DNA of 9,667 bases from a virus (Duplodnaviria > Heunggongvirae > Uroviricota > Caudoviricetes). Each line of letters opens with the position of its first letter. The first letter of the stretch is position 1. Below are positions 6,607-8,182 of the stretch, piece after piece. A program made the position numbers and the translations under genes. Location: the IMG/VR virus record IMGVR_UViG_2585427756_000015; one strand, written 5' to 3'. The notes below the pieces were generated by a model. That model was not told the origin of the DNA. It worked only from the letters and a program-made list of their open reading frames with translations, and searched no databases.

Positions 6607-7350
6607 CTAATCTGACGTCACACGCACCATTATACTTACTAAAGAAAAGTCATCATCAGGTCCGGCTCTCTCTATACGACGCAAAATACCATTAGAAAAC
6701 TTCTGACTATTACTCATAGTATTTGATGTAAATCTGGGGCGTTTTTCCCAAACGTTATGAACTCCATCAGACATGATACACAGATGATACAACCCGTTAA
6801 TACCAGGCAAATCTTTCCACGGGATAAAATCACAGTCGTATTCCATATCAACATTTGAGGCTATGGCAGTCGTTAAGATATTTTTTCCCGGTTTATTCTT
6901 CAAATCTCTGGGTTTAAAAATATTCTGATCAATTAACATCTGATGTCTGGTATCGTCCTTCGTCAATTGATATGCTTTCTTTTCTCCAATGCAATACAAG
7001 CGACAATCACCAATATGACCAATAATAATTCCGCTATCACAAACATAACAAAAGGTAAGTGTAGTAGCAGCTTTATCGAACTCATCATTAACTTCAGCTA
7101 ACGACATAACTTTTCGCTTAACTTCAGCAAATACATTCGGAACTGCATCAAAAGATAAACTTGTCAATGCTGAAAGTTCAGCGATTGCCATGGATGAAGC
7201 ATAACTGGCACCAGAGTATGAACCTACACCATCAGCTACGGCAAATAAGATGCCGTCTCCTACAATTTTTGGAGGAAGCAATGAATCTTCGTTGACCCTA
7301 CCTGGTTCTTTTGGATACGAGAATGATGAAGTCGCTATCAGCTGAATCAT
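6607..7350 (-). CDS. PP2C-family (PPM) Ser/Thr protein phosphatase, 247 aa
   Basis: PPM metal-binding motifs visible: NEDS, AVADGVGS, HIGDCRLY, MSDGVHN, DDDFSLV. Excellent RBS AAGGAG 8 nt before ATG 7350, which overlaps the kinase stop (ATGA). Confidence 0.8.
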   Translation of the reverse strand: MIQLIATSSFSYPKEPGRVNEDSLLPPKIVGDGILFAVADGVGSYSGASYASSMAIAELSALTSLSFDAVPNVFAEVKRKVMSLAEVNDEFDKAATTLTFCYVCDSGIIIGHIGDCRLYCIGEKKAYQLTKDDTRHQMLIDQNIFKPRDLKNKPGKNILTTAIASNVDMEYDCDFIPWKDLPGINGLYHLCIMSDGVHNVWEKRPRFTSNTMSNSQKFSNGILRRIERAGPDDDFSLVSIMVRVTSD

Positions 7351-8111
7351 GACTCACTCCTTAAAAAAGAATGCGCAAAATCAAACGCCACATCATCTAT
7401 TGTCTGATATCTATCATCTTTATCCATCCTTGTGCACTTAGCTATGATAGGCTTTATTTTTTTATCATCTAAATTTAAGTCTTCAATTAACCGTCCCACA
7501 GCATAAACATCAGTCTTAACTGAATACTCTGCATTATATAAAATCTCGGGAGCCATATATCTTGTACTTCCCATACGGGTACCGATCTCGGTCAATTTAG
7601 TGGTATCCCCTTCGGGATTCGTATCTTTTACCAGACCAAAATCAGACACCTTGTATGTTCCGTCGCTAAATCGCAAAACATTAAAGGGTTTTATATCTCT
7701 GTGTAAATAGCCTTTGGCATGGATGTAAGCTACACCATCTAATACCATTTTCACTATTGAAATTTTTTGATCTGTTGTAAGAAGGTTGTTCGTTATTTCG
7801 TGCTCAAGATCACATTCTGCTTTATCCATAATGAACCATGGATTCTCAACAAACAAATCGCACAAATAAATAGGAACAATATTGCTATGTACGCAATGTG
7901 ATTGATACACAACCTCCCTTTTAAAACGCCTTCTAAACTGCTCTATTTGCGCCAAAAGCTCTGGTTTTTCGGGTGCTAAAACCTTTCTAGCATAATCCCC
8001 GCATTCACCTTTATTGAGGTTGTAAACCTTAACGTGTTCAACAAAGCCAAATGCCCCTCTTCCAATCAACTGAATTCGTTTTATAAAGTAATTACCGTGC
8101 TGTTCTTCCAT
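7347..8111 (-). CDS. Hanks-type (eukaryotic-like) Ser/Thr protein kinase, compact catalytic domain only, 254 aa from ATG 8111
   Basis: Gly-rich loop IGRGAFGFV, VAIK-like Lys (YARKVL), catalytic loop HRDIKPFNV, DFG (VSDFGLV), APE (RYMAPE), subdomain IX DVYAVG. The ORF-track start at 8186 is a TTG extension; the first ATG at 8111 has a GGTGAG SD. Confidence 0.85.
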   Translation of the reverse strand: MEEQHGNYFIKRIQLIGRGAFGFVEHVKVYNLNKGECGDYARKVLAPEKPELLAQIEQFRRRFKREVVYQSHCVHSNIVPIYLCDLFVENPWFIMDKAECDLEHEITNNLLTTDQKISIVKMVLDGVAYIHAKGYLHRDIKPFNVLRFSDGTYKVSDFGLVKDTNPEGDTTKLTEIGTRMGSTRYMAPEILYNAEYSVKTDVYAVGRLIEDLNLDDKKIKPIIAKCTRMDKDDRYQTIDDVAFDFAHSFLRSES

Positions 8112-8182
8112 TAAGCTCACCGACCTAAATTGTAACAATATCCATATATTACAACTACAGATAAAAAGGTCCACAGAGTTAA

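Follow-up and report, generated by a model that had tools for sequence, protein, structure and literature searches.

A kinase and PP2C phosphatase gene pair in the late region of a lambdoid Escherichia coli prophage: a candidate minimal exclusion or abortive-infection module

What does a prophage do with a protein kinase and a protein phosphatase encoded one behind the other within its late region? This question is raised by a 9,667-nt stretch of DNA, hereafter the window (virus record IMGVR_UViG_2585427756_000015 of IMG/VR, assigned to the Caudoviricetes), which is the late-control and lysis region of a lambdoid Escherichia coli prophage, oriented on the minus strand. An earlier reading made from the letters of this DNA (the sequence-only reading) had singled out a cassette of two genes encoding a Hanks-type Ser/Thr kinase and a PP2C phosphatase. 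RefSeq already annotates both genes, under generic names. The cassette is well defined, annotated and uncharacterised, and can best be regarded as a minimal form of the kinase/PP2C module known from prophages. Our tentative answer is that the pair may well be a minimal kinase/phosphatase exclusion or abortive-infection module, that is, a self-contained phospho-switch carried as accessory cargo. This answer gains indirect support from the genomic context of the pair and from the precedent of the KKP (kinase-kinase-phosphatase) module of other prophages (PMC11341870).

The first gene (7347..8111, minus strand) encodes a bare Hanks-type Ser/Thr protein kinase of 254 aa (WP_000392435.1). The full motif set announced by the sequence-only reading is present (GRGAFGFV, YARKVL, HRDIKPFNV, DFG, APE and DVYAVG), and the protein matches Pfam Pkinase (PF00069) with an E-value of 1.5e-33 (116.7 bits for a cut-off of 31.7). 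The claim that no sensor or other domain accompanies the kinase also held: the Pfam scan gave only Pkinase and PK_Tyr_Ser-Thr matches, and the kinase fold fills the 254 aa, so that a sensor, membrane or targeting domain could not be accommodated. When 22 homologues sharing 44-74% identity with the window kinase are aligned, the catalytic residues G17/G19/G22, K43, E66, H137-R138-D139-K141-N144, D157-F158-G159, A187-P188-E189, D201 and R234 are invariant or nearly so. They include the Ser/Thr-type HRDxKxxN loop, and residue T174 of the activation loop is invariant. Since M1 is also invariant in these homologues and PGAP calls the same 254-aa protein, the start codon is the ATG at 8111 and not an upstream TTG. 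The AlphaFold2 (AF2) model (pLDDT 87) is a confident bilobal fold in which only the activation loop is disordered. Foldseek aligns it with PknB, Stk1 and BTK (TM about 0.7-0.8), and generic eukaryotic kinases match as well. With a ratio of nonsynonymous to synonymous change (dN/dS) of 0.03-0.04, the kinase looks complete and catalytically competent.

The second gene (6607..7350, minus strand) encodes a bare PPM/PP2C Ser/Thr phosphatase of 247 aa (WP_000615423.1), in which the motifs AVADGVGS, GDCR, SDGV and DDDF are found as claimed. It matches PP2C_2 (PF13672/PF00481 family) with an E-value of 3.9e-14 (53.1 bits, well above the cut-off of 24). Among 23 homologues, the metal-site residues N20, D22, D40-G41, D115, D195-G196 and D233-D234 are invariant, and motifs 1, 2, 8 and 11 are all kept. 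The AF2 model (pLDDT 91) retrieves Stp1, PstP and tPphA with Foldseek, and PppA also superposes. Here too, there is no room for a sensor, membrane or targeting domain, and the phosphatase, with a dN/dS of 0.09-0.12, looks complete and catalytically competent. Profile searches and structure prediction, which had been suggested as checks, place both proteins above the Pfam cut-offs and in confident canonical folds. The phosphatase gains nonsynonymous change about three times faster than the kinase, with a similar dS in both. For instance, when positions 6607-8111 of the window are compared with the related loci L095 and L111, dN for PP2C/kinase is 0.019/0.005 and 0.101/0.030, respectively. Such a faster change fits what would be expected of a PP2C acting as an interface with phage proteins.

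The two genes are closely tied to each other. The stop codon of the kinase (TGA, 7349-7347) overlaps the start codon of the phosphatase (ATG, 7350-7348) in an ATGA (7347..7350, minus strand), and a Shine-Dalgarno sequence AAGGAG (7357..7362, minus strand) lies inside the 3' end of the kinase gene, 6 nt upstream of the ATGA; the overlap and the AAGGAG had both been noted by the sequence-only reading. The overlap implies a translational coupling of the PP2C to the kinase, the latter having its own Shine-Dalgarno sequence, GGTGAG (8116..8121, minus strand), 4 nt before its ATG. The same 4-nt overlap is found in phiES15, in Flotzy and in Yersinia, P. syringae, Xanthomonas, P. putida and Enterobacter loci. 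More generally, the ATGA overlap and the internal Shine-Dalgarno sequence recur in most lineages, the latter being kept at the PP2C position as a GGAG-type sequence.

The cassette is present in 50 out of 5,426 complete E. coli genomes and is always chromosomal. Two alleles were distinguished in this species (>=99.8% and ~96%), and the cassette is 100% identical in 16 complete genomes, including those of ML35, VR50 and BEN2908; 55989 and E24377A are further carriers. Megablast of the cassette against the phage collection gave no match, and relatives surfaced only at the protein level. Protein searches revealed two parallel families of ~250 aa in Enterobacterales, Pseudomonas, Vibrio, Aeromonas, Xanthomonas and Pasteurellaceae, the kinase family being also found in Ferrimonas and including environmental Pseudomonas, Vibrio and Aeromonas. 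A profile scan of genome contigs with the kinase alignment, which carries generic kinase motifs, retrieved unrelated Hanks kinases, and only a Pseudomonas koreensis locus (L004) belonged to the family. The PP2C proteins form a compact family, in which E <= 1e-30 is reached by 68 clusters at 50% identity. A kinase homologue (or a remnant of it) lies directly upstream of the PP2C gene, on the same strand, in all of the 80 IMG/VR loci retrieved by the phosphatase, the kinase being truncated in a few of them. The pairing also holds in 9/9 genome or contig look-ups made through the kinase, as well as in phages Flotzy and phiES15. Furthermore, kinase and phosphatase co-diverge (Mantel r 0.87, p 0.001, from pairwise identity matrices of 53 unique pairs), and both genes are under purifying selection. 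These comparisons indicate that the pair is a conserved mobile unit across Gammaproteobacteria, kept by selection.

A fused kinase-phosphatase protein had been suggested by a PHROG match of the PP2C to positions 273-520 of a 565-position profile. This candidate was dropped: no fused form occurs among the best 150 representatives of an exhaustive profile search, nearly all of which are ~235-255 aa long, nor in the two homologue lists (kinase and PP2C).

The way in which the pair decays may be informative about the roles of its members. Decay was counted in the 50 E. coli genomes, for which the two genes served as a joint query. Full length is kept in 43 of them. A shared 1-nt deletion cuts the kinase to 218 aa in five others, and a 10-nt deletion removes its N-terminus in strain 510016 (one genome), the PP2C being intact in both cases. 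Both genes were destroyed by insertion sequences (IS) in one genome, and no lesion affecting the PP2C only was seen among the 50. In loci L162 and L164, only the last ~63 residues of the kinase remain beside a full-length PP2C; an unrelated 213-aa open reading frame (ORF; 314-955 in L162, 7150-7791 in L164) replaced the rest, leaving an 'orphan antidote' arrangement. Three independent kinase-only losses were thus found in total, and this is the direction predicted by the association of a toxic kinase with a protective phosphatase.

How did this unit reach its present position? As the sequence-only reading proposed, it sits between a tR'-like terminator and a terminator of its own. The former (8182..8211, minus strand) consists of a hairpin (8211-8188) with an 8-bp GC-rich stem and an 8-nt loop, followed by a U-run (dG -15.5 kcal/mol, z -3.1). 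The cassette-end intrinsic terminator (6501..6547, minus strand) is stronger (dG -21.7 kcal/mol, z -5.8) and is flanked by an A-tract and a U-tract, as in the bidirectional type. Beyond it lies the truncated methyltransferase gene that had also been noticed, a 3' remnant (6170..6496, minus strand) matching only positions 134-219 of the 221 positions of the N6_N4_Mtase profile (N6/N4 DNA methyltransferase) and annotated by PGAP as a pseudogene 'missing N-terminus'. It is 74-76% identical to full-length methyltransferase genes that follow Q in Flotzy and in an Enterobacter prophage. This remnant is a scar that marks the left boundary of the cassette, which has replaced the 5' two-thirds of the methyltransferase gene. 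Moreover, the GC content of the cassette is 36-39%, versus 50-53% in its flanks. The drop in GC, the terminator and the replaced 5' part of the methyltransferase gene bear out the proposal that the pair was acquired as a cassette. Phages that are collinear in other respects, such as 933W and PPompW, lack it, and it is found with two unrelated Q families (PF06323 and PF03589). Concerning the features expected from a moron, foreign base composition and an own terminator are present, and the only candidate for an own lysogen promoter is TGTTACAAT, which has no -35 and is not conserved in the 96% allele.

Does the pair belong to a system that is already known? In agreement with the sequence-only reading, PADLOC did not assign it to any named defence system: its matches, to mad6, PD-T4-6 and Stk2, are confined to the kinase domain, and the PP2C, for which PADLOC has no such phosphatase model, gave no real match. 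Close identity to a characterised system or to a secreted effector, which had been named as an outcome that would overturn the proposal, was not found either in sequence or profile comparisons with PD-T4-6, Stk2, 933W Stk and LegK1. The most instructive comparison is that with KKP, the PfpC-PfkA-PfkB kinase-kinase-phosphatase module of Pf6 and of P2/P4/Mu-like prophages (Guo et al. 2024, PMC11341870). Its two kinases are jointly toxic and are neutralised by the antitoxin PfpC, which is its PP2C; cells carrying the module are protected from T-phages (PMC11341870). It is triggered by T4 Gp59, which binds and inhibits PfpC (PMC11341870). The principle of a prophage-encoded kinase toxin with a PP2C antitoxin was therefore published in 2024 (PMC11341870). 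Like KKP, the window pair is prophage or mobile cargo of Gram-negative bacteria in which Hanks kinase and PF13672 PP2C genes share one operon, and the likeness would extend to KKP's own role, with toxic kinases, a PP2C antitoxin and an abortive-type defence. However, the pair has two genes in the order kinase-phosphatase, whereas KKP has three in the order phosphatase, kinase, kinase; no second kinase was found within the window by ORF, Pfam or PGAP analysis. In KKP, the PfkA-type kinase is fused to a cold-shock domain (CSD) and the PfkB-type kinase to an FHA domain, both being needed for toxicity, whereas the 254-aa window kinase has neither. In addition, the 247-aa window PP2C lacks a C-terminal domain, and the site is a lambdoid late/immunity slot instead of a P2/P4/Pf hotspot. 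Judged by gene count, gene order and domain content, the pair is not a member of KKP. By analogy, it plausibly works like KKP in a minimal form.

Other known kinases are more distant. PD-T4-6 is an E. coli Ser/Thr-kinase defence gene whose PADLOC models match the window kinase at 1e-34, but over the kinase core only (positions 11-201 of 327). It is a single gene of 1311 bp encoding 436 aa, with a kinase domain at 9-284, a C-terminal extension and no phosphatase (Vassallo et al. 2022, PMC9519451). Judging from these sequences, the pair is not PD-T4-6. The sequence-only reading had also invoked the Stk kinase of prophage 933W and Staphylococcus Stk2, which act in exclusion (933W against HK97) or abortive infection. 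The analogy with 933W Stk would be one of function only, and the 933W stk gene lies downstream of cI, like some relatives of the window pair. At the sequence level the analogy fails: identity is 24% over the C-lobe only, and Stk is a 348-aa protein that has HFD instead of HRD and no PP2C partner. The Stk2 model is likewise matched only at the kinase core (positions 160-348 of 500), and the pair appears to be neither of them. The cellular pairs Stk1/Stp1, PknB/PstP and PpkA/PppA encode the same two folds side by side and provide the closest solved structures and the best NCBIfam matches. However, these scores are far below the equivalog cut-offs (103 versus 450, 96 versus 230), and the cellular kinases, which serve core physiology, have sensor parts of the transmembrane, PASTA or FHA-linked kind, whereas the window pair is domain-minimal and mobile.

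In the exclusion or abortive-infection reading, the kinase would be the effector and would activate itself by autophosphorylation of its activation loop at the invariant T174. Once active, it would phosphorylate cellular proteins and thereby arrest growth or phage development. In healthy cells, the co-produced PP2C would keep the kinase and its substrates dephosphorylated. Infection by another phage would tip this balance, for instance if one of its proteins inhibited the PP2C, as T4 Gp59 does with PfpC. The outcome would be exclusion or abortive infection, protecting the lysogen population.

The places in which relatives of the pair are found provide good evidence for such a role, as far as gene neighbourhoods can tell. 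A panel of reference phage proteins was used to classify 59 distinct viral contexts, and pooled Pfam scans served as a check. The pair lies directly after Q (of the PF06323 or PF03589 family) in about 15 of them, after the lysis genes and before the terminase in about 11, and beside CI-like repressors in 7-8. For instance, in L117, L118 and L153, a repressor with helix-turn-helix (HTH) and S24 domains (CI-like genes at 6423-7160, 6436-7128 and 6392-7144, respectively) terminates 80-110 nt before the kinase gene, with both on the same strand and no terminator hairpin in between. This position downstream of the repressor is the rexAB slot of lambda and the stk slot of 933W. In L138 and L145, the pair is downstream of N on the same strand (N-like genes at 6526-6957 and 6696-7163), which is the sieB-like slot of lambda. 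The slots occupied are typical of phage-borne exclusion genes. The pair is also found outside prophages. In Aeromonas it forms a stand-alone islet of two genes flanked by housekeeping genes; in P. syringae it closes a P2-like tail cluster, next to a SocA/Panacea gene; in Xanthomonas its neighbours are a NACHT NTPase and SymE; and in P. putida it lies among transposases. In the P. koreensis locus, a complete Gabija system (GajA 2.5e-208, GajB 2.2e-172; 2454-6432) lies 1.5 kb from the pair, with an IS4/5 transposase on its other side. The neighbourhood analysis that had been suggested as a check finds the pair recurring in prophage late regions and, once, near Gabija.

A bolder version of this reading is possible, although we would not call it probable: the pair would be a previously unnamed, Gammaproteobacteria-wide minimal two-gene 'KP' immune system. 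In such a system, the kinase would be a reversible growth-arrest effector and the fast-evolving PP2C both its brake and the sensor of phage proteins, temperate phages carrying the pair in rexAB-like, sieB-like, post-Q and post-lysis slots.

The control elements around the window cassette bear more directly on the time at which it would be expressed. The Q antiterminator gene (8258..8953, minus strand; phage-82/Phage_antiter_Q type, PF06323 E 5.6e-84, PGAP 'bacteriophage antitermination protein Q') defines the start of the late operon. A consensus scan detected a putative PR'-like late promoter, TTGCAA-17-TATATT (8246..8274, minus strand), which overlaps the Q stop codon and whose region is 73% identical to the Q-downstream region of Flotzy. 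The geometry of this promoter and of the tR'-like terminator matches the annotated pR'/qut/terminator arrangement of 933W, in keeping with the claim that the cassette lies behind Q, PR' and tR'. A second TATATT, ~20 nt downstream of the PR'-like promoter, may be a sigma-70 pause element. Because of its location after PR'/tR', the cassette is predicted to be strongly produced under Q antitermination during induction. The sequence-only reading had added a possible extended -10 that could give expression in the lysogen. The sequence TGTTACAAT does occur at 8129..8137 (minus strand, read from 8137 to 8129), but it was not listed by the promoter scan, has no -35 and loses its TG in the 96% allele, which reads TCTTACAAT. 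It is real as a sequence and probably weak as a cassette promoter. Expression in the lysogen would, in this window, come only from read-through of the terminator or from this weak promoter. A different element was seen in two related loci, L142 (~4085-4125) and L156 (~7180-7220): an AT-rich palindrome, AATAACATTA-N12-TAATGTTATT, lies directly upstream of the kinase start and may be an operator for cassette-specific regulation.

Several points weigh against an exclusion or abortive-infection module. Lysogen expression is its weak link in this window: the cassette is located in a Q-dependent late operon, behind a terminator, where a gene required in the lysogen would be poorly expressed, and the proposed promoter is weak. 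The kinase-first order and the lack of extra sensor domains leave no evident trigger. The asymmetry of decay comes from three events only. As many as 26 of the 59 viral contexts are unclassified, five of them having too little upstream DNA to be judged, and when the neighbours of the pair at four other non-prophage loci were scanned with PADLOC, a single weak effector-like match was obtained. Finally, literature searches found no published study of the two-gene family.

The location of the cassette is also the starting point of the alternative that survives best, although we regard it as rather unlikely. According to this alternative, the pair serves late-lytic host takeover or anti-defence: a Q-dependent kinase would phosphorylate host proteins, or defence proteins of the host or of rival prophages, in favour of virion production, the PP2C limiting self-damage or erasing the marks of host kinase-type defences. 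The slot right behind PR'/tR' is the one that gives stx its induction-dependent expression in 933W, and many relatives belong to late operons, in which they follow Q or the lysis genes. There is also a precedent among phage kinases, since the T7 kinase (T7K) broadly disarms defences (PMC13645617). However, T7K is atypical, having a DPV motif and a shut-off domain (PMC13645617), and is unrelated to the window kinase; a relatedness to the T7 gp0.7 type was considered and rejected, the window kinase having a canonical DFG. Moreover, late expression would be too late for anti-defence at the time of infection, and purifying selection keeps the pair in prophages that are defective and riddled with IS elements. 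A late-lytic role also leaves unexplained the slots in cI operons, which are expressed in the lysogen, and the non-prophage copies, including that beside Gabija.

The adjacency to CI and N in several relatives could instead point to a regulatory module of lysogenic conversion, which we consider unlikely. Here, the kinase would phosphorylate a host regulator, such as a nucleoid protein of the H-NS family, or the phage repressor, and thus tune induction or host physiology. KKP offers a parallel, as it controls the activation of the Pf prophage through phosphorylation of MvaU (PMC11341870), and the cassette is AT-rich, as is typical of H-NS targets. On the other hand, neither protein has a DNA-binding or sensor domain, stand-alone chromosomal copies exist in Aeromonas with no prophage nearby, and several lineages tolerate having lost the kinase naturally.

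The obligate pairing, the translational coupling, the kinase-only decay and the location on mobile elements would also suit a purely selfish addiction (toxin-antitoxin, TA) module that stabilises its element and has no role in phage defence. This is improbable: the classical type of addiction requires an unstable antitoxin, and nothing here points to a labile PP2C enzyme. In addition, many TA-like modules at such phage slots turn out to be defensive, and the pair adjoins Gabija and NACHT genes. A secreted effector kinase that would be translocated into eukaryotic cells as NleH or LegK are, suggested by a weak NCBIfam LegK1 match limited to the kinase domain and by carriers that include the pathotypes 55989, E24377A and BEN2908, was rejected as extremely improbable, the LegK1 score being 48.8 for a cut-off of 550, the kinase domain beginning at residue ~8 with no room for an N-terminal secretion signal, the PP2C partner being obligate and of cytoplasmic type, and the family extending to environmental Pseudomonas, Vibrio, Aeromonas and Ferrimonas.

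The remainder of the window corresponds to a known type of late region. Its genes follow the order DUF968, rusA, Q, intergenic control region, kinase, PP2C, terminator, methyltransferase remnant, three tRNAs, esterase, holin, lysozyme, Rz and a fragment of an IS3-family transposase. The annotated 933W late region has the same backbone (Q, pR', terminators, ileZ-argN-argO, stx2AB, esterase, S, R and Rz); the stx genes are absent from the window, and the kinase-PP2C cassette sits between tR' and the tRNAs. The three tRNAs (6120-5871, minus strand) form a trio of the ileZ-argN-argO type, typical of the late regions of Stx phages. The one at 6045-6120 (minus strand) has the anticodon CAT and is called Met by ARAGORN, and PGAP annotates the identical gene as tRNA-Ile (ileZ-like, presumably lysidine-modified). 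Downstream of the trio, on the minus strand, come the SASA/NanS-p-type esterase gene and then those for holin, lysozyme and Rz. Two full-length copies of the STnc100 small RNA (Rfam RF02076, 165 and 136 bits) are located at 5118-5327 and 5605-5795 (minus strand). They separate the tRNA trio from the esterase gene and occupy the stxAB slot of Stx phages such as 933W. The IS3-family transposase fragment (42-488, plus strand) adjoins the lysis genes, Rz being at 528-974 (minus strand). The same prophage in BEN2908 has a lysozyme gene into which IS66 elements have inserted, splitting it (L001 4256-7485). The IS fragment at the lysis genes and the split lysozyme gene indicate that the carrier prophages are defective, yet the kinase/PP2C pair is intact.

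What the pair means for its carriers depends on which reading holds. If it acts in the late lytic phase, it would be the temperate-phage counterpart of the T7 kinase strategy. If, as we tentatively favour, it is a defence or exclusion module, it would represent phosphorylation-based anti-phage immunity at its minimum, with one kinase, one phosphatase and no accessory domains, and its trigger and key substrates would be much easier to find than those of the three-gene KKP. Should the 'KP' proposal be true, no simpler toxin/antitoxin defence based on phosphorylation would be known, and reference E. coli strains (55989, E24377A and ML35) already carry the pair. As a defence or exclusion module, it would also provide a lambdoid example in which the Shiga-toxin slot of Stx phages holds an immunity cassette instead, and it would explain annotated but ignored 'eukaryotic-like' signalling genes in widely used E. 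coli strains.

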